A stretch of 64,000 nucleotides of DNA, taken from positions 60,320,137 to 60,384,136 of the forward strand of contig NC_057718.1 of NCBI RefSeq assembly GCF_004010195.1, written 5' to 3'. The DNA comes from Chiloscyllium plagiosum. Lineage: Eukaryota. Position numbers and translations under genes: made by a program. Below, piece by piece: positions 1 to 38,100 of the stretch. The stretch's first letter is position 1. Every line of letters starts with the position of its first letter. Below the pieces are notes generated by a model. The model was not told the DNA's origin. It did no database searches and saw only the letters and a program-made list of their open reading frames with translations.

Positions 1-1342
1 CATTCAAGGCTAATTCACCGTTTGTAAGCAAATGTCTATTAAATGAAACTAATTATGAAGAGTCTACATTTTCATAGCCAGGCAATGTTGTATTTTTTTT
101 TTTGTCTTCTTATTTCTTTTTCTCTTCAAAGTTAGCCACATATCCCTACTATTAAACTGTTCAAATACTTTCATATAGTTTAGTCAATTGTTTAATTGCA
201 CAATATTAACCACTTTAGAGAATCGGTTTCCAATAAAATCTCTAGTATGAAGTTTTCACTTTCTGCATTCAGGCAAGGAAAGAACAAGGCAACACATTAT
301 GACGCATTTCAGGGCACATTTAACTCATTTTAACAGGTTATTAATTCGTGGTTTTTTATCCCCATAAGAAGTGAGTTCTGAAGATCTTGTTTTCCATTGT
401 TTATCCCATTGTTAAAAACTCAGTGACCTCTGAATGTTGTTTATAGTGCAGAACTAATTCATTCATTCAAACCATTTCTTTCTGCTAAACAACCTCTCTG
501 GCCCTGCAAATTTAATTTGACAGATGTGGTGTTTCATTGTCTCAGAAGAAAATGAGTAATATTTTCTCTTGGTTTTCTTTCTGTTTCTTTTATCTCTCTC
601 CTATAATCCCCATCCATCCTTCTCATTCTTTGCTTTCAGTATATTCTATATAATTCTGCCTTATGACTCCTCATTTAGGATCTGCAGTTTGATATCACTT
701 TGAACTAGATGCAAGGATTGAGATTCATGTTAATTGACAATAATATAGGTAGCTCACTAAATTCATGGTATTGAATTTTTTTTTTGGTTGTATCATTTTC
801 GCCAGGTTTTATGGGGGATTCCTTACCGTATCTTGCCAAACTTGCCTCATTAACTACTTACCTCAGCAACACAGCATACCTGTCACCGGATTCCTATTCC
901 ATATTACTATGCATCATCACTGGAAAAACTCACCACTGCCGGAACATCTTAGAATTGACTGGCATCCTTTGTGCCAACACCATCTTTAACAGGTCATTGT
1001 GCTCCTGGAAAAACACTGAAACTACCCTGGACAGTCCATTGGTGTCAACAATACCCTGTTTTCTGGGGACCTGGATATCCTGCTGGATTCGGTGGTACAG
1101 GGATGAGATAACCTCTTTCACCAGGATAAGCAAAGGATGCTGTGACGCTAGACCATGCCAGCTTTGTCTATGCAGGTCTAAGCAGTCTCAGCCATCTAGA
1201 GATGTTCAGCAAGAAAGGAATAACGTCAATCACTTTCTCCAATCTGCCTGTATAGTGTCATCATCTGCTATGTGAACCCTGACACTTACTCTATGTCTAC
1301 GACTATACCATTCCCCACCAACAGTACTGTCACCAAAGCCTA

Positions 1343-2779
1343 TGTTATGGACCCTACCCAAACCCCTCAAAATAGAGTCATAGAGTTATAGAGTTGTACA
1401 GCATGGAAACAGACCCTTCGGTCCAACCTGTCCATCGGCCCATACCCTTACAAACCCTTCCTATTCATATACCCATCCAAATGCCTCTTAAATGTGGCAA
1501 TTGTACCAGCCTCCATCACTTCCTCTGGCAGCTCATTCCATACACGTACCACCCTCTGCGTGAAAAAGTTGCCCCTTAGGTCTCTTTTATATCTTTCCCC
1601 TCTCACCCTAAACCTATGCCCTCTAGTTCTGGACTCCCCCATCTCAGGGAAAAAACTTTGTCTATTTATCCTATCCATGCTCCTCATAATTTTGTAAACC
1701 TCTATAAGGTCACCCCTCAGCCTCCGACGCTCCAGGGAAAACAGCCCCAGCTTGTTCAGCCTCTCCCTATAGCTCAAATCCTCCAACCCTGGCAACATCC
1801 TTATAAATCTTTTCTAAACCCTTTCAAGTTTTACAACATCTTTCCAATAGTAAGGAGACCAGAATTGCACGCAATATTCCAACAGTGGCCTAACCAATGT
1901 CCTGTACAACTGCAACATGACCTCCCAACTCCTGTACTCAATACTCTGACCAATAAAGGAAAGCATACCAAACACCTTCTTCACTATCCTATCTACCTGT
2001 GAATCCACTTTCAAGGAGCTATGAACCTGCACTCTAAGGTCTCTTTGTTCAGCAACACTCCCTAGGACATCACCATTAAGTGTATAAGACCTGCTAAGAT
2101 TTGCTTTCCCAAAATGCAGCACCTCGCATTTATCTAAATTAAACTCCATCTGCCACTTCTCAGCCCATTGGCCCATCTGGTCCGGTAACCCTCTTCGCTG
2201 TCCACTGCACCTCTAATTTTGGTGTCATCTGCAAACTTACTAACTGTACCTCTTATGTTCGCATCCAAATCATTTATGTAAACTGAGATGTTGCATTCCA
2301 AATATCAGATTTAAAACAAAACATACTTTGTTCATCTACTATAGTTAAAATTCCACAACAAAAAAGAAACATTTGGAATAATGTAACTCTACTGGAAAAC
2401 CTAACATTATAGCATATATTGTGAAAGCCCATAAACACAGACTTGGCAAAATGGAAATGTAGAACACAGGTTGTCTGAGGTACTAGTCCCATAACAGTTA
2501 GAAAACTCTCAGCTTTTGGCTGTAACTGAGAGAGGGACAAAGATTAGCTTCTACCTCTTTAAGACCCAAGCCACAACTGCAACTGAAAACTAAAACTCCT
2601 GGTTCTGGAGCTTTACTGCACCCATTCAGGCTGCTTCTAATGTTCCAACTTTTAAAAAGAAAACACCCAAGGCTTCACAAGATGTTTTATCTTCTCATGG
2701 TCTGCTTAACACCTGTTCCCCAATCTCTTTCTTAAAAAAAAGAACAAACCACACCTCTTAAAGCCACAGAATCATCACA
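1343..2779. mobile_element. Solo LTR (Gypsy-like), interrupted by a CR1
   Basis: Starts TGTTATG, ends CATCACA, flanked by identical 4-bp CCTA at 1339-1342 and 2780-2783; no coding motifs outside the nested CR1. Confidence 0.7.
1372..2282 (-). mobile_element. 5'-truncated CR1/HER1-type LINE
   Basis: [84 protein letters not shown]-like tail repeat. Confidence 0.95.
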
Positions 2780-3194
2780 CCTACAACATCTTCCCTCACC
2801 TGCTATCACCCCAACCCCTGCCATCACTACGCTCTCGGCACAATCTACTCACTCACTCAAGACAGCACTTCACTGTCATCCACAGTAATCGCTGTGTCAA
2901 CCAATTTCACCTCCTCTAATACCTGCATCTCTCTTAGTCCAGAAGAAAAACAGCCTCCAAAAGGGCAGAAAGAGTCAAGATGGGTGTTGGGCTGCCTGGG
3001 ATTCCGTTCCTCGCTCCTTCTGAGGAAAGGATCCTGACTCTGACCACCCCGAGTGGCTGATTGACTGTATCCAAGCCCCTGGATTGATATTGGAGGCTGC
3101 CCTAGACTTATTGTACCTTGACCCCCTGAGCGAAAGCTAACCCCCTTAACGTAACTCAGGACTTCTGAAAACCATGACAAACTTGCTAAACTAA

Positions 3195-3955
3195 TGTAGA
3201 AAGTGCTGGAGAAACACAGTAGGTCCTACAGCAGCTGTAGAGAGAAAAGCAAATTAGAACTGAAAGCAGTTGGGAAATGGAATTTATGCCGATGATGAGG
3301 GGGACATCTCCTCCTATCTCCTTCTGGACCGTTGCCCCATCTCGAACATCAGACCACTATGTCCACTATGTCCATCTTATTTGGGGACCTCCCTCCCACA
3401 GCCTACCAGATCATAGACCCACAATCCCATTCAGCCTGCTTCAATATTTTTTCCAAATCCACAAACAGGACTCACCAGGCAAGCCTATTGTTTCAGCCTG
3501 TTCCTGCCCCATGGAATTCATGTCTTCCTACCTTGCCTAGATTTTGTTTTTTCTCCCCTTGTCCAGTCTTTCCCCATTTACATCCACCATTCCTATAATG
3601 CTTCATGTTTAGTTTGTTGGCACCAAGCATCTCCTTTTCACCATGGAGATAGACCAGACTTGCCACATCCATCCCCATTGAGAAAGGTGGTCTTACACTT
3701 CTTCATTGAGAATAGGCCTACATCATCCGCTTACACAACCATCCACCTGGCTGAGTGCATCCTCATCTTGAACAACTTCTCCTCTAACTTCTTTCACTTT
3801 CTTCAAGTCAGAGGGGTGGCCATGGGTACCTGCATGGGTCCCAGTTATGCCTGTCTCTTCATGGGATATGGGGAACATTCCTTGTTCCAGTCCTACTTTG
3901 GACCCTGTCCATAACTCTTCATCTGGTACATCAATAACATCATTGATGCTTTCCA
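3195..3955 (+). mobile_element. Decayed Penelope-like element (RT fragment)
   Basis: QIHKQDSPGKPIVSACSCP and GVAMGTCMGPSYACLFMG, matching Penelope RT motifs PKIHK..GRPIVS and GVAMG..MGPSYA; pLTR-like piece at ~3195-3260. Confidence 0.85.
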
Positions 3956-15094: not shown

Positions 15095-15238
15095 CAGAGG
15101 AATCTCGATTATCTGAACAAGATCACAGGTCCCGATGCTTGGTTAAACTGTGTTTTCTGGCATTCGATTATCCAAACATTCAATTATCCGTACAAATTTC
15201 TCCCCACCCGTGTCGTTCGGATAATCGAAGATCCTCTG
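15095..15238. mobile_element. pogo/Tigger-like MITE (Tc1/mariner superfamily)
   Basis: Terminal inverted repeats CAGAGGAATCTCGATTATCTGAAC / GTTCGGATAATCGAAGATCCTCTG; TA on the left, CA on the right; internal repeats of (G/A)ATTATCC. Confidence 0.85.
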
Positions 15239-21400: not shown

Positions 21401-21985
21401 GTGAACTTAACAAAATGAATCCACTTGATATAAGTTTCAATTTAACATGAATCCAGAATTAACCATGAATTAATTGGTGCATGATGCTTCGAATCAAGAC
21501 GTCAATACATTTTAAATTGCTAATACAGTAACAATTATACCTTGCAAACCACAAACATTCATATAATCCGATACAGATATGTAATATTACATAGCTACAT
21601 GCCATTCCACAATATGTTGTTCTTCATTTGCTCCAGGATAGGTAGGCCGGGAATCCGATCTGATAAGTTCTTTCACCTGCAAATTTCATGGGTAAACTTT
21701 ATTATCAGCAAGGCATAATTCTATAAACACTCTCTCCAACTGGTCATAGCAATCCTAATTGTGTAGTTTTTCAGACCAACTAACTATTAACATTCCAGTT
21801 GATGATCTGGCCAACTCTGGGAATTATATCCAGCTCTTTTCTTTCTCAGAGTTACCAAAATAGTTTTTTTTTTTATTTTGATATCATAGTCAGCTTGCAT
21901 AGTGCCTCTAAAAGCACTTACGTCCATTGCAGATAAACAGAAATACTGATCTTTTCCAGAAAGTGATTTGCTTCTTTTCTTGATA

Positions 21986-22712
21986 CAGAGCAACCTCAGT
22001 TATCCGCACATCAATTATCTGAACAAGATCTCAAGGTCCTGTAAAAACATTATGTCAGAGAGGCGGTGGTTCTGTCTTTCTATCATCACACTGAGTTCAG
22101 CAGAAACTGATAAATGCTCTTAGGATTTTAAATGCCGTTTGGGCCATTGTTTAATGCTGGGATTTTCATATTGATGTGATGGTGAGGATTTAGTCCTTCT
22201 CAGTTTAACGGAACTTGTGCAACTTCCTCCTACTGGAATGTTGCCCCAGTATTATTTCCTGCGGTGGAGCACAAACAACGCCTCTGGACCCTACTTGGCT
22301 TTCTGCACACTGTCATCATCCTCTGTCAGCCTCACCCACACCCTGAACCAGATCAGAGACACTATGAGCCTGGGCATTGTGCTGCCTGCCTCCCGGAGAG
22401 CCTTCCTGCAACAAGCCCTCCTCAAAGGAGTGGAGGTGGCCTTAAGTGGCAACCTTCTGCCCTACAACCTCAGCCTAGAGATGGTCAGCAGCCAGGGCTG
22501 GCAGCCCGACCCACAGTTCCTCCTGCAATCTGTCTGCCAGTCCGTTATGGTCCAGGGAGTCACAGCTGTTCTGGTGTTCCCACAATCTGCTGACCAACTG
22601 GTCCAGATGGATTTTTTAGCATCTTTCCTGGAGATCCTTTCATCAGTACCATGAAGTGAGGAGTATCATGGCTTATCATACTCATCTCATTTGGATAATC
22701 GAGGTTGTCCTG
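21986..22712. mobile_element. Non-autonomous pogo/Tigger-like transposon carrying a captured gene fragment (Pack-TIR)
   Basis: Left TA+CAGAGCAACCTCAGTTATCC; right end reverse-complements to CAGGACAACCTCGATTATCC; left subterminal ATTATCTGAACAAGATC is shared with the MITE at 15095. Confidence 0.8.
22264..22659 (+). pseudogene. GRIN3B: Captured, decayed first coding exon fragment of NMDA receptor subunit GluN3 (GRIN3B-like)
   Basis: Signal-peptide-like EHKQRLWTLLGFLHTVIILCQPHPHP, then after a frameshift LNQIRDTMSLGIVLP..LLPYNLSLEMV..DPQFLLQSVCQSVMVQGVTAVLVFPQS..MDFLASFLEI; matches GluN3 motifs HPQPC, LLPYNLSLE and QSVC..V.VQGV.A.L.FPQS. It lacks the long GluN3A-type inserts, hence 3B-like. GTG at the start position, frameshifts at ~22343 and ~22637. 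Confidence 0.85.
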
Positions 22713-23124
22713 GATAAAAGTTTTGTAGTTATCTTTCTGTCTTTATTTCCTTTCTCTTGCTGTTTGCCTTGAATCATAGCATCTTGTCATATGACTTCGT
22801 CATTTCAACATCCTTTGTGGTGACACTGCTTCCATGTTAAGTGTCACCGAGTCACATTGACCATTTTTTTTACAATCTAAATCTCAATTAAACTCTTTAC
22901 AATTGATGCAAATTCTAGAAGTCATGATCTTTAATATTCTTAAAAACATTACACGTTCCACAGCCTTTTAAAGCAGTTACAGATTTTCCTTTAGTGTACT
23001 ACTTGTGGATCGTGGTTTGTCACATCTGATGCAGTGGAAGAGCCACAGGAACGCAAACTTCTCTGACAAATAGAATTGTGACCTATTACAAGCTTCCCTG
23101 TTCTGGTGAGACCTGACCAGAATA

Positions 23125-25012
23125 TAGATCTTCAGACAGGACGGGGAGGGAAGCAAAAGGAGGGGGGGCCGCAGTTGGTTAGGGAGGATATCACGGCTGT
23201 GCTAAAGGAGGACACTATGGAGGGCATGGGTAGTGAGGCATTATGGATGAAGCTGAGAAATAAGAAGGGTTCAGTTACATTGCTGGGATTGTATTACGGG
23301 CTTCCCAACAGTGAGCTTGAGGTAGAACAACAAATAGGTAAACAGATTATGGAAAGATGTAGAGGCAATAGGGTAGTGGTGTTGGGAGATTTTAATTTTC
23401 CCAACATTGACTGGGATACACTTAGCGTTAGAGGTCTGGATGGGGTAGAATTTATAAGAATCATCCAGGAGAGTTTTCTAGAGCAGTATCTCAATAGTCT
23501 GATGAGGGAAGGGGCCATATTGGACCTGATATTGGGGAATGAGCCAGACCAGGTGGTAGAAGTTGCGGTGAGGGATTTCTTTGGGAACAGTGATCACAAT
23601 TCTGTAAGTTTTAGAATACTCCTAGACAAAGATGAGAGTGGTCTGAAGGGACGAGTACTAAACTGGGCCAAGGCCAATTATATCAAAATTAGGCAGGAGC
23701 TGGGAAATGTGGATTGGACATAGCTATTTGACGGGAAGTCCACATTTGATATGTGGGAGGCTTTCAAAGATAGTGCAGGATAGGCATGTCCCATTGAAGG
23801 CAAAGGATAGGAAAGGCAAGGTTCGTGAACTGTGGATGACAGGAGAAATCGTACAACTAGCCAAGAGGAAAAGGGAAGTGTACATAAGGACTAGGCAGCT
23901 AAGAACAGAATGGGCCCTGGAGGAATATCGGAAGAGTAGGATCAGTGTTAAACGAGGAATCAAGCCGGCTAAAAGGGGTCATGAAATAGCTTTAGCGAGC
24001 AGAAGTAAGGAGAATCCCAAAGCATTTTATTCTTACATAAGAAGCAAGTGGGTAACTACAGAACGGATTGGTCCACTAAAGGATAATGAAGGAAGGCTGT
24101 GTGTCAGATCTGAGAGAATGGGTGAGATTCTGAATGATTATTTTGCATCAGTGTTCACTGAGGAGAGGAACATAATGAATGTTGAAAGTAGAGATAAAAG
24201 TTTGATTAGTCTGGATCACGTTGACATAAGTAGAGAAGATGTGTTGGGTAGGCTCGAGGTTATTAAGGTGGACAAATCCCCAGGGCTGGAAGGGATCTGT
24301 CCCAGGTTGCTGAGGGAGGAGAGAGAGGAAATAGCTGGGGCCCTGACAAATATATTTGTGGCATCCTTAAATACAGGTGAGGTGTCGGAGGACTGGAACG
24401 TTGCTCATGCTGTCCCCCTGGACAAGAAGAGTAGTAGGGACATTCCGGGTAACTACAGACCAATGAGACTGACATCAGTGGTGGGAAAGTTTCTGGAGAA
24501 GGTACTGAGGGATCGGATCTATTTATATTTAGAAAAGAATGGGCTTATCAGTGATAGGCAACATGGTCTTGTGCGGGGGAGATCATGCCTTACCAACTTA
24601 ATAGAGTTCTTTTGAGGAAGTGACCAAGTTGATAGATGAAGGAGGGACTGTTGATGTCATATACATGGACTTTAGTAAGGTGTTTAATAAGCTTCCCCAA
24701 GGTAAACTAATAGAGAAAGTGGAATCACATGGTCTGCAGGGTGTTCTAGCTAAGTGGATAAAGAACTGGTTGAGCAACAGTAGACAGAGTAGTTGTTGAA
24801 GGGAGTTTCTCGAAATGGAGAAAGGTGACCAGTGGTGTTCCACAGGGATCGGTGCCGGGGCTAACGTTGTTTGTGAAACACATAAATAATCTGGAAGAGA
24901 GCACTGTTGGTATGATCAGCAAGTTTGCAGATGACACAAAGATTGGTGGAGTAGCAGAAAGCATAAGGGACTGTCAAAGAATACAGGAGAATGCAGTTGG
25001 ACTGGAGAGTTC
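23125..25012 (+). mobile_element. CR1 LINE ORF2 (APE endonuclease + RT), disrupted
   Basis: VVVLGDFNFPNIDW, ILDLIL, GNSDHNSV, PGNYRP, QHGLVRGRSCLTNLIEFF, SGVPQGSV, KFADDTKIGG. Confidence 0.95.
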
Positions 25013-25829
25013 TTTATATTTTTGTTGGGCAAACCGACCTGAGGCAGCATCACCTGCTGTTGGCTGTCATACCAATGTGCAAAATCTGACACAAGAAAAG
25101 ACTTACTACTCCATGCAATCTGACTCATACAGTTATGATTTTGTTTGTGTTTTATCAAATATAATCATTTCATTGGCCTTCTCCATCCACCACTTTTTCT
25201 TGTTGACACATACTCTTTGATCTTTGGATTTGAGTAGTGAGTATGCTCACAACAGATATATTTTGACAATAGTTTGCAACTTGCACTCATTGAGTCAATT
25301 TTCAGGTATACCAAATCAAAGGGAAGCCCAACACTGATACTGCATTACAGAAGAGTGCTGTTTGAATGACAATTGGACTTTAATTTGTCGAGACTTTACC
25401 ATGGAAAATGCATTTGTTGACAGTTAACTGCCAGGCTTTGTTAACATTTTAAACAAGTCAAATTGGCTCAAATTGATCAGGGTATTGCACAGAGAAACAT
25501 ACTTGTGAATGGCTGATGCCTATTTTGTTGACTTGAAACAGGGACTGTGCATGTACCATGCTTTCTCTGCTTGAGCATCAGAGCTCTGTGAGTTATTATA
25601 TGTAACTTCCAATAAAAATGTGCACCACACTGCAAGCAAAACTTGATAATCCTAAACTGGATGGATTGTCAGTTGGAATCATCATGTGGTGCATTTGCAT
25701 GGAATGGAAACTATGTATATTAATATTCAAAGGCCCGTTCTTTGCAGATAGAGCACGCACATCCACTGTTCCCAATTTAACTGAACAAAATAGGCTTATG
25801 GAAAATACTGGAGATTAGCAGGACCTTAT

Positions 25830-33903: not shown

Positions 33904-34692
33904 AAGGTGCTGCATTTTGGGAAAGCAAATCTTAGCAGAACTTATACACTTCATGGACATGTTTAATTTATTTAGCCTCCTGAGGAAGAAGAGGCATTGA
34001 ACAAAGAGACCTTGGAGTGCAGGTTCAAAGTTCCTTGAAAGTGGAGTCGCAGGAAGATACGATAGTGAAGAAGGCGTTTGGTATGCTTTCTTTTATTGGT
34101 CAGAGTACTGAGTACAGGAGTTGGGAGGTCATGTTGTGGTTGTACAGGACATTGGTTAGGCCACTGTTGGAATATTGTGTGCAATTCTGGTCTCCTTCCT
34201 ATCGGAAAGATGTTGTGAAACTTGAAAGGGTTCAGAAAGAATTTACAACGATGTTGCCAGGGTTGGAGGATTTGAGCTATACGGAGAGGCTGAACAGACT
34301 GGGGCTGTTTTCTCTGGAGCGTCAGAGGCTGAGGGGTGACCTTATAGAGGCTTACAAAATTATGAAGGGCATGGATAGGGTAAATAGGCAAAGTCTTTTC
34401 CCTGGGGTCAGGGCATATAAAACTAGAGGGCATAGTTTAGGGTGAGAGGGGAAAGCTATAAAAGAGACCTACGGGGCAACTTTTTCACACAGAGGGTAGT
34501 ACGTGTATGGAATGAGCTGCCAGAGGATGTGGTGGAGGCTGGTACAATTGCAACATTTAAGAGGCATTTGGATAGGAAGGGCTTGGAGGGATATGGGCAG
34601 GTGGGAATAGATTGGTTTGGGATATCTGGTCGGCATGGATGGGTTGGACTGAAGGATCTGTTTTCCATGCTGTACATCTCTATGTCTATGAC
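33904..34692 (+). mobile_element. 5'-truncated CR1/HER1-type LINE
   Basis: [46 protein letters not shown] tail. Confidence 0.95.
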
Positions 34693-35142
34693 AGTCATTT
34701 GTAGATAATATAATTTGAAAAAATACAAGGATCAGAATCCACAAAAGAACTATATTTCAGTAATTGGTTTTTGAGCAACAAGTTGAGAATGAAAAATAAA
34801 TATAATGTGATAACATCTAGAAGTCTCCTTTAAACTCAAAGTCAGTACCTGGTGAAAAGACAACTTGTGACAACAGACATTCACCAAAAACTCAAGGGTA
34901 TCTGCAAATATCACCACACTTGAAGCAACAAGATATCAGCTAAGTAATTGGGACTCTGGGCATTCTCATAACTCAAAGACTCTAAGAACTTCAAACTGCA
35001 ATTATCTGATATATCAAACAAACACCCACCATCCGCCTCCCTTCAATTTAACCCATCTTTGTGTGTGTGTTTGATGTCTTTTTTTGGTGTATTAGGAATA
35101 TGATACCTGATTACTGAAAAAAAAAATAAATCTTTGTTACAA

Positions 35143-38100
35143 ATAACAATCTGTCCTGGATCACTCACGTTGATGCGATTGTCAAGATGGGACAATAATG
35201 CCTCTTCTTCCTCAGGAGACTAAATAAATTAAACATGTCCATAAGGACCCTCACCAATTTTTATAGGTGCACGATAGAAAGCATTCTATCTGGATGTATC
35301 ACAGCTTAGTGTCAAAGAGTGTGGTGCTGGTAAAGCACAGCTCACCAAGCAGCATCTGAGGAGCAGGAGAGTCGACATTTTGAGCATGAGCTCTTCATCA
35401 AGAATGAGAGGGGCCCGGGGGGGCTGAGAGATAAATGGGAGGGTTGTGGGGCTGGGGGAAGATGGCTGAGAATGCGATAGGTAGATGAAGGTGGGGGATG
35501 ATGGTGATAGGTGGGAGAGGAGGATGGAGCAGATAAGTGGGAAGGGAGATGGGCAGGTAGGACAGGTCGTGAGGGCAGTGTTGAATTAGAAGGTTGGATC
35601 TGGGATAAGGTGGGGGGAGGGGAAATGAGGAACCTGGTAAAATCAACATTGATTACATGTGATTTGAGGGTCCCAAGGCAGAAGATGAGGCGTTCTTCCT
35701 CCAAGCATCAGGTGGCCCAGGACTTGCATGTCCTTGGTGTAGTGGGGGTGGGTGGGAGATAAAGTATTCGGCTACAGGGAAGTGGGGTTGTTTAGCATGG
35801 GTGTGCCAAGGATGTTCTCTGAAGCATTCCGCAAGTTGGCGTCCTGTCTCCCTAATGTAGAGGAGACCACATCAAGAGCAGCAGACACAGTAGATGACCT
35901 ATGTGGAAGTACAGGTAAATCTCTGTCAGATGTGGAAGAATCTTTTGGGGTCTTGGACGGATGTGAGAGGGGAGATATGGGCGCAGGTTTTGGACTTCTT
36001 ACAGTGGTAGGGAAAGCTGACAAGAGTGGAAGGTGGGTTGTTGGGGGTGGGGGTGTGTGATCCTAACAAGGGAGTCACGGAGGGAATGTTCTCTGTGGAA
36101 TGCAGATAGGAGTAGGGTGGGAAATATATCCCTGGCTGTAGGGTCTGTTTGTAGGTAGTGGAAATGAAAGAGGATGATGCGTTGTATCTGGAGATTGGGG
36201 GGGTAAAATCTGAAGATCAGGGGGGTTCTGTTCTTTTTGTAATTGGAGAGATGGGATTCAAGGGTGGAGGTGTGGGATGTGGCAGAGAGGTGCTGGAGGG
36301 CATCGTCAACCATGTGGGAGGGGAAATTGCAGTCCTTGAAGAATGAGGCCACCTGGGATGTTCTATGGTGGAATTGGTCCTCCTGGGAGCAAATGCAGCA
36401 GAGGCGGAGGAGTTGGGAATAAGCAATAGCATTTTTACAAGACGTAAGGTGGGAGGAGATGTAGTGCAGGTAGCTGTGAGAGTTGGTGGGTTTGAAGTAG
36501 ATGTCCGTGTTGAGTTGGTCACTGGAAATGGTTTTGGCGAGGTCCAGGAAGGGGAGGGAGGTGTTTGAGATGGTCCAGGTGAACTTGAGGTCAGGGTAGA
36601 AGGTGTTAGTGAAGTTGATGAACTGTTCAACCTCCTCATGGGAGCATGAAGTGGCGCTGATACAATCATCAATGTAGCAGAGGAAAAGGTGTGGAATGGC
36701 GCAGGCGTAGTTGCGGAAGATGGACTATTCTATGCATCCGACGAAGAGGCAGGAATAGCTGGGCCCAATGCTGACTCCTTTGGTCTGGAGGAAACGGGAG
36801 GATTCAAAGAAGAAATTGTTAAGGGTGAGAACCAGTCCTGCCAATTGAATAAGTGTGTCAGTGGAGGGGGACTAGTTGGGTTGTTGGGAGAGGAAGAAAT
36901 GGAGGGCTTGGAGTCCTTCGTCATGGCAGATGGATGTGGACAGGGACTGGAGGACCATTGTGAAAATGAGGTATTGCTGGTTGTGGAAATGAAAGTCTTG
37001 GAAGAGGTAGAAGGACTAGATGGTGTCCCAAACGTATGTGGGGAGATTCTGGACTGGGGGACAGGACGGTGTAAAAGTATGCAGAGGTAAATTCGATGGG
37101 GCAGGGGCAGAGGTAGTCTGAGATGATGGGTCAACTGGGGCAGTCAGGTTTGTGAACTTTGGGTAGGATGTAGAACTGGGCGGTGTGGGGTTCTGGGACT
37201 ATGAGGTTGGAGGCTGTTGGTGAGAGATTCCCTGAGGTGCTGAGGTTGTGGGTGGCCTATTGATGATGGTTTGGTGATGAGAGATGAGGTTGTGGTTGAG
37301 GGGCAGTAGGAGGAGGTGTCCGTGAGTTGGTGCCTGGTTTCAGCAGTGTAGAGGTCAGTGCGCCAAACTACCATAGCACCCCCATTCTCTGCTGGTTTGA
37401 TGGTGACGTTGGGATTGGATTGGAGGGAGTATAGAGCCATGCGTTGCAAGGGCAGAAGGTTGGAATGGGTTAGAGGAGTGGACAGTTTGAGGCTGTCAAT
37501 ATCACACTGACAGAGATGAAGAGATCGAGTGCGGGTAACAGCATGGGGTGTCCAGGTGGCTGGGGTGTGTTGGAGGCAAGAGAACGGGTCCTTGGAGGGT
37601 GGGTGGGAGTCCTGATGGAAAAAGTAAGCACGAAGGCAGAGCCAGCGGAAGAAAGGTTCGATGTCACAATGTGTGTGGAATTCATTGATCCCGGAGCATA
37701 GTGGGATGAAGGTGAGGCCTTTACTGAGGACTGATTGTTCATCCTCAGTGAGGGAGAGGTCTGGCGGGATGGTGAAAACACAAAGGCTAGGGCCTGATGT
37801 GGAGCTGAAGTTGGGAGTGGAGACAGAGATAGTCTCTGGAGTGGGTGTATTTATGGGATCGTGGGTGACATCATCAACCCTGATTATAATTTCTTCCAAC
37901 CTCTTCCATCAGACAGAAGAAACAAAAGCTTAAAGAATCTTACCAACAGGTCCAAGAACAGCTTCTTCCCTTCTGTTATTAGATGTCTGAATGGTCCTCT
38001 CAAATTTCAAATCTACAGTTGATCATGGTTTTGTGCACCTTCTTTGCAGCCATAGCTTTGTACTCCCTGCTCTGTTCAGTCACCCTGTAATCTTTGTATG

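Follow-up and report, generated by a model that had tools for sequence, protein, structure and literature searches.

The window that was analysed is a 64-kb stretch of shark DNA (C9:60320137-60384136, from an assembly of 3.56 Gb that was searched as a whole), and its positions 21986-22712 hold a Pack-TIR, a small cut-and-paste TIR transposon with a piece of a host gene inside, in the form of a dead copy that has lost internal sequence. All parts of the copy are given in the plus orientation. It starts with a left TIR (CAGAGCAACCTCAGTTATCCGCAC, 21986-22009), which pairs with 22693-22712 and forms the outer end of a transposon-derived 5' arm (21986-22262) that is 79-95% identical to generic copies of the same transposon (L005-L020). 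The arm is followed by the captured, pseudogenic exon 1 of a GRIN3 gene, reasonably taken to be of the GluN3B type (22263-22663; codons 1 to approximately 138 of 143; 83% nucleotide identity to exon 1 of the gene on C31), by a short stretch at a deletion scar (22664-22681), filler or remnant, that aligns poorly to exon, intron and generic element, and by a transposon-derived 3' end (22682-22712) in which 30 of the 31 nucleotides are as in the generic copies (96.7% for L011, 93.8% for L009). The right TIR occupies 22689-22712 and has one mismatch to the 20-nt terminus of the family. The dinucleotides directly outside these ends are TA (21984-21985), which is the left member of the target-site duplication, and GA (22713-22714), its degenerate right member.

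The element starts with CAGAGCAACCTCAGTTATCC (21986-22005) and ends with GGATAATCGAGGTTGTCCTG. Its first 20 nucleotides are identical at 16 positions to the reverse complement of 22693-22712, and a repeat search extended the inverted arms to 26 nt (77%). Compared to the family terminus the left TIR has three mismatches in 20 positions and four in 24. When the 20-nt family terminus, which was built from unrelated genomic copies, was searched in the window, it matched only at 21986 (+) and 22712 (-), in inverted orientation, and 100 shuffles gave an expected number of chance matches of 0.00. A hAT-type duplication of 8 bp, or one of 4 bp (GATA), was also considered for the window copy and dropped because the flanks are TA throughout the family.

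A preliminary description of this stretch had proposed that a GluN3 N-terminal fragment sits between inverted termini that are flanked by a left TA and a right GA, and all of the sequence features that it described are present. Its borders for the captured part needed revision. The approximately 200 bp upstream of the coding part had been read as GRIN3 5'UTR, and they are instead the transposon's own 5' arm (277 bp), which has at least 1072 candidate counterparts across the genome and does not align to the GRIN3 locus of the parent; parental homology begins only 1-3 bp before the ATG. Relative to full generic copies, this arm lacks approximately 16 bp and approximately 250 bp of internal sequence. 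The end of the coding part, at 22659, had been taken for that of the exon. Homology to the parent in fact reaches approximately 22663 (around codon 138 of 143), beyond which an internal deletion follows, and the apparent GTGAGG donor at 22659 corresponds to the parental ...GAG CGA GGA..., in which CGA was changed to TGA; the exon boundary lies elsewhere.

The nature of the captured part is clear from a comparison with P0001, a shark GluN3 protein of Hemiscyllium ocellatum that carries the NCBI name 'NMDA 3A'. In a tblastn search residues 1-27 matched 22264-22344 in frame 1 (74% identity) and residues 29-128 matched 22337-22636 in frame 2 (77%), with a joint E of 2e-48, and the fragment also matched solved GluN3A (phmmer against PDB, E 1e-10), by which the suggested relation to GluN3 is confirmed. 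Alignment to the parental exon likewise bore out the lesions that had been noticed before (a GTG start, a lesion at the HPxPCQIL motif and a 1-bp frameshift at EI[P]FIS) and allowed them to be placed: GTG stands where the parent has ATG, 11 bp are deleted at codon 25, inside the HPQPCHIL stretch, 1 bp is deleted at codon 128 (EI-PFIS), and codon 136 is a TGA. An open frame of 95 codons that starts from an internal ATG persists at 22364-22651.

No other match of P0001 in the 64-kb window was better than E 1.2 (tblastn), in agreement with the earlier observation that a second GRIN3 exon is absent from the stretch. Three open frames downstream (23082-23720, 23662-24612 and 24774-25217) were considered as GRIN3 exons 2/3 and rejected, for they encode pieces of a LINE endonuclease and reverse transcriptase. 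The corresponding degraded LINE (23082-25220, +) lies 370 bp downstream of the element, contains Exo_endo_phos_2, Exo_endo_phos and weak RVT_1 domains, and resembles LINE-1 ORF2p structures. The Pfam scan covered 88 of the 89 stop-to-stop frames of at least 90 aa in the window (14 + 74; 22186-22593 was left out), and the 74 further frames had no Pfam match at E <= 1e-4. Considering that there is no other GRIN3 exon, that the downstream frames are those of a LINE and that the remaining frames lack Pfam matches, the fragment therefore lies outside any gene at the C9 locus.

A genome search with the whole element yielded at least 1072 first-look candidates, nearly all of which match positions 72-277 of the query only (22057-22262 in the window), with the sequence of positions 1-78 located some 250-300 bp further out. 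The generic full copies (L009, L011 and L015) are approximately 950-1000 bp long and share three parts with the window copy: its left end, the sequence at 22057-22262, and some 31 bp at the right end (22682-22712); where the window has GRIN3, they carry unrelated sequence. Flanking TA dinucleotides were found at 22 of the 30 family termini (18 loci plus the window), a strong enrichment (binomial p 1.6e-20) with respect to the TA frequency of 0.063, and at 17 of 23 termini in the generic copies alone; six of the eight non-TA flanks are one base away from TA.

We then compared these termini with those at 30 loci that encode a pogo transposase (DDE_1), and found that four of them (L055, L056, L057 and L060) carry a closely similar terminus, which reads TA followed by CAG(G/T)GGAACCTC(A/G)ATTATCCGAA. 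The L060 element measures 2.38 kb, has TA on both sides (G000:C20:3258684-3262235, approximately 822-3204 within the locus, minus strand) and contains CENP-B_N (E 9e-11), HTH_Tnp_Tc5 (2e-8) and DDE_1 (8e-24) domains that stops disrupt; copies similar to this nearly full-length pogo/Tigger-like element are L056 and L057. The generic element resembles L060 at both ends, over the first ~70-110 bp (69-79%) and over the last ~220-260 bp (74%). Termini homologous to those of an element with CENP-B_N, HTH_Tnp_Tc5 and DDE_1 domains, together with the TA flanks, support the view that the carrier is a non-autonomous, internally deleted element of the pogo/Tigger type (Tc1/mariner superfamily), and the original assignment to a pogo/Tigger TIR transposon with TA duplications holds. 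The L060 type is no exact match for an autonomous partner of the family, since its TIR differs from that of the family at positions 4-7 (CAGTGGAACC vs CAGAACAACC) and since it is itself disrupted by stops; among the 30 DDE_1 loci we found no transposase-bearing element with a TIR identical to that of the family. The window contains one further sequence with related termini, a 144-bp MITE at 15095-15238 (TA, then CAGAGGAATCTCGATTATCTGAAC ... CGGATAATCGAAGATCCTCTG, then CA), which belongs to the same or to a sister pogo-type family.

The intact counterpart of the fragment is located elsewhere, as expected for the proposed capture of a first coding exon from GRIN3. A six-frame search of the genome with P0001 recovered a full series of GRIN3 exons on C31 (C31:14947113-15025087, minus strand), with 99% identity to the protein in exon 3 and 98% in exon 1 (C31:15024656-15025087). 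A second, more distant GRIN3 paralog extends over more than 130 kb on C2 (C2:110505020-110637594; 74% aa identity to P0001 in exon 3), and three more places, on C6, C9 (the window) and C10, match exon 1 only and contain internal stops. When two teleost proteins that bear the name NMDA 3B are the reference, the C31 gene reaches 511 and 509 bits with its exon 3 and the C2 paralog 480 and 478 bits with the corresponding exon, while against solved GluN3A the order is reversed (661 bits for the C2 exon and 591 for that of C31). In view of this reciprocal pattern it is reasonable to regard the C31 parent as the GluN3B-type paralog, and the 'GRIN3B-like' label that had been attached to the fragment is reasonable on the same scores. 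The NCBI name 'NMDA 3A' of P0001 would seem to fit the C2 gene better, as the latter is closer to solved GluN3A. Within approximately 1.5 kb on either side of the C31 exon 1 we found no sequence of the transposon family, and the presence of a parental copy without transposon flanks excludes a segmental duplication or a bypass of the element's end as the origin of the chimera.

To what extent the chimera was multiplied follows from a search with the parental exon 1 and the start of intron 1 as query (four candidates, all four scored). Exactly four places were recovered by this search, which scores the best candidates and may miss very degraded extra copies: C31 itself, C6 (83%, query 1-558), C10 (85%, query 31-554) and the window copy on C9 (83%, query 5-415). 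In a four-way alignment the left junction is common to C9, C6 and C10: the transposon sequence continues up to ...CCTGC (...TTTCCTGC) and GRIN3 sequence takes over 1-3 bp before the ATG, with an overlap of 2-3 bp, GC(C), between the generic transposon (CCTGC(T/C)GC) and the parent (CGGCCATGG). The C6 and C10 copies include all 143 codons, proceed past the GT(A/G)GG donor and contain approximately 125 bp of intron 1. They also have a common right junction, at which the generic transposon resumes at ...TACA followed by CAAAAAGT (...ACAAAAAGT); here the overlap is 4 bp, TACA, and the parent reads GATGTACAGAGG. Alignment to the true GRIN3 locus has thus mapped the breakpoints and resolved both capture junctions. 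The deletion of ~250 bp in the 5' arm with respect to the generic copies is found in all three copies, and the window copy differs from those on C6 and C10 in that it lacks ~16 bp near the left end and the part from approximately codon 139 to approximately 30 bp before the right end, of which place 18 bp (22664-22681) are left.

The outer ends read TA-TAGAAC...GTTCTG-TA on C6, TA-CAGAAC...GTTCAG-TA on C10 and TA-CAGAGC...GTCCTG-GA on C9, so that five of the six outer flanks are TA and the right flank of C9 is GA; in the alignment no homology was found among the three beyond the TIR ends. Besides the window copy there are, then, two copies with both TIRs, TA duplications and different flanks. 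Identical junctions at three unlinked sites, each with its own TA site and with unrelated surroundings, imply a single capture at the DNA level and, after it, at least two transpositions. Of the earlier picture of a mobile family that spreads the exon around the genome, the mobility after capture stands, given three copies with common junctions; 'spreading' is not what happens now, since there are exactly three old and broken copies. The mobility is supported by these three copies and not by a presence/absence polymorphism.

We therefore consider it very probable that the element is a Pack-TIR in which approximately 555 bp of GRIN3 replaced an internal segment, that it was transposed later on, and that the window copy was further deleted. 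The carrier would have been a non-autonomous pogo/Tigger-like element of approximately 0.95-1.0 kb with a TIR starting with CAG and a TA duplication. Into it would have been copied the ~555 bp of GRIN3 that comprise 1-3 bp before the ATG, exon 1 (143 codons) and ~125 bp of intron 1, likely by template switching during the repair of a double-strand break or gap in an excised or broken element, where repair synthesis would have jumped to GRIN3 exon 1 and back at short microhomologies, GC(C) at the left junction and TACA at the right one. The capture donor site was not found and the mechanism, be it gap repair or switching at a replication fork, is for that reason deduced from the junctions, whose microhomologies of 2-4 bp are short. 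Because neither its TIRs nor its subterminal CAGTTATCCGAAC-type repeats were lost, the chimera could still have served as a transposase substrate; the common termini suggest that it was mobilised in trans by a pogo-type transposase, to land at no fewer than three TA sites on different chromosomes (C9, C6 and C10). Presumably at a later stage, the C9 copy would have lost the last few codons of the exon, the piece of intron and most of the 3' arm.

Other origins of the arrangement can be weighed against the same data. The fragment might be native to its place, as the decayed first exon of a GRIN3 gene or pseudogene, and the inverted repeat around it a coincidence; it does represent a real GluN3 N-terminus, and the LINE just downstream could reside in a large first intron. 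This is hardly compatible with the lack of a further GRIN3 exon in 64 kb, with loci on C9, C6 and C10 that match exon 1 only, with the complete gene on C31 and the second paralog on C2, or with the Pfam scan of 88 of the 89 stop-to-stop frames (>=90 aa), which gave LINE domains only. As the termini moreover match a family of at least 1072 candidates where 0.00 chance matches are expected, and the same transposon-exon junctions recur at two other loci, we hold a native exon to be extremely improbable. The likelihood that a partial GRIN3 mRNA was retroposed into pre-existing copies of the transposon is negligible too. The captured part starts almost exactly at the start codon and comprises nearly all of the exon, and a LINE with endonuclease and reverse-transcriptase domains is found 370 bp downstream, all of which would fit retroposition; yet on C6 and C10 the ~125 bp of intron 1 are contiguous with exon 1, which therefore indicates capture at the DNA level and contradicts retroposition, poly(A) is absent, and identical transposon-exon junctions at three loci are unlike what independent insertions would leave.

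It is very improbable that the three copies were produced by segmental or ectopic duplication of a single-copy chimera that had formed by gap filling independent of transposition. According to Tan et al. 2021 (PMC8277862), most animal Pack-TIRs are single-copy and have arisen without transposition, which speaks for such an origin. The homology between the shark copies nevertheless stops exactly at the TIR ends, with unrelated sequence outside, five of the six flanks are TA, and each copy is on a chromosome of its own: the unrelated flanks contradict segmental duplication and the common junctions contradict independent gap filling. There is, lastly, a small chance that the origin was as we propose and that at least one copy is still used, for instance within a host transcript or as RNA, antisense or small, that is directed against GRIN3. 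An appreciable share of the animal Pack-TIRs is transcribed, often as chimeras, according to the same survey (PMC8277862), the insertion was kept in three species and the 95-codon frame (22364-22651) is still open. On the other hand, the divergence looks neutral, every copy has disabling lesions, the donor GT was changed on C6 (GG) and C10 (GC) and deleted on C9, and retention at a divergence of 4-5% is to be expected of neutral DNA anyway.

The Pack-TIR copies themselves are old. The K2P distances between them amount to 0.17-0.23 in the transposon arm and 0.16-0.19 in the captured part, and those to the parent to 0.145-0.169. In addition to the window copy, with its GTG start, losses of 11 and 1 bp and TGA at codon 136, the C6 copy has a TAG at codon 26 and length changes of +1, -4 and -6, the C10 copy has length changes of -15, -2, +2, -1 and +1, and the donor GT reads GG on C6, GC on C10 and is deleted on C9. 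Differences between copies are spread evenly over the three codon positions (26/24/30, 22/25/32 and 21/18/21; p 0.37-0.86). Between the C10 copy and the parent there is an excess at third positions (10/19/28; p 0.014), the pattern that a constraint on the parent alone would give. All three copies are thus broken and decay as neutral DNA, and a present function is not indicated.

Contigs of two related species cover the captured part together with the junction on either side, at the depth of a single-copy sequence, with approximately 4-5% differences and without large gaps (e.g. X9 records 17 and 20; X18 records 9 and 15), from which it follows that the insertion and its deletions are older than the split of the three species. 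The divergence between the copies is several times larger than that of this split. An empty TA site in a related species, the search for which had been suggested, was not convincingly seen in the contigs of these two species, where the insertion is present at the same site. Two kinds of joints were considered as empty sites and set aside: a joint of 21976 to 22896, with sides of 21-22 letters in single contigs, was taken as repeat noise, and joints of the 22047-to-22685 type stem from short MITE members elsewhere in the related genomes. Many of the latter link the first ~60 bp of the element to its last ~30 bp. In the contigs of the related species the summed depth is hundreds to thousands at the termini (21960-22079 and 22680-22739) and around ten in the flanks, and in each of the three species very short MITE derivatives appear to outnumber the ~1-kb form by far.

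In one RNA run (single-cell poly(A), of which ~6% was sampled) 0 reads fell on the stretch. Before its decay, the captured part would have amounted to a cassette in which an intact start codon, with the surroundings that it has in the parent (GCCATGG), was combined with the signal peptide of GluN3, some 120 residues from the beginning of the amino-terminal domain, and a splice donor. We see a slender chance that it was formerly a mobile 'signal-peptide exon cassette', brought to new loci, of which at least one copy may still be transcribed, as a chimeric or antisense RNA, and act on the GRIN3B-type parent in the nervous system of the shark; antisense, small-RNA and exon-shuffling roles are a matter of speculation.

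Pack-MULEs, a comparison from plants, are Mutator elements with 9-bp TSDs. Like the plant Pack-type elements, the shark element is a non-autonomous TIR element with a gene fragment that was amplified by transposition and, as is usual for them, is non-coding or pseudogenic; unlike Pack-MULEs, it is of the pogo/Tigger type with a TA TSD, has three copies and a single captured fragment, and resides in a vertebrate. Mammalian Tigger and MER elements are examples of pogo/Tigger transposons and of their MITE and internal-deletion derivatives. With these the family has in common the TA duplication, TIRs that start with CAG and abundant short MITE forms, and the window copy differs from them in that host coding sequence takes the place of internal transposon sequence.

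The animal counterparts were surveyed by Tan et al. (Nat Commun 2021; PMC8277862), who reported 370 Pack-TIRs in 100 animal genomes, all of them 90% or more identical to their parents because of the filter used, and described gap-filling and fork-switching routes for their formation. TcMariner elements, including Tigger, are the second commonest carrier in that survey (115 of 370), and the multicopy Pack-TIRs amount to four families (1.4%), from frog and alligator (PMC8277862). Supplementary Data 2 of the same source lists 0 Pack-TIRs for the elephant shark, the sole cartilaginous fish surveyed. The shark element fits the definition of a Pack-TIR as given by Tan et al. 2021 and is of the rare multicopy kind. 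As in the animal cases reported there, two termini of one TIR family surround a host fragment, the parent is found elsewhere without transposon flanks, both junctions show microhomology and the carrier is a TcMariner element; as in hAT-N8_XT/CAPSL of the frog, three chromosomes have one copy each, at a TA target site and with separate flanking DNA. It differs from most of the Pack-TIRs reported there by being multicopy and by its elasmobranch host, and it is older than their cut-off allows (83-85% identity to the parent vs >=90%). What was captured includes a whole first coding exon, with its signal peptide, and the start of the following intron. In the literature outside subscription journals we found no printed description of the shark GRIN3 element.

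The process as such is known, and the element is an ordinary but clean example of it that involves no new mechanism: a well-resolved vertebrate case of gene-fragment capture and transposition by an element of the pogo/Tigger type, with mapped junctions, a known parent and three daughter copies. It suggests that elasmobranchs had active pogo-type elements in their lineage and that template switching took part in the repair of these elements. The three daughter copies (C9, C6 and C10) can give rise to false 'GRIN3-like' gene models when shark genomes are annotated, and as no physiological role is indicated the value of the case is that of an example and of a caveat for annotation.

Further along the window, the region 34001-38000 is rich in G+C (GC up to 0.505) and has a very strong GC skew of +0.31 to +0.47. 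Several long minus-strand frames in it (up to 254 aa) had no Pfam match, and the region may be a satellite or a low-complexity repeat.
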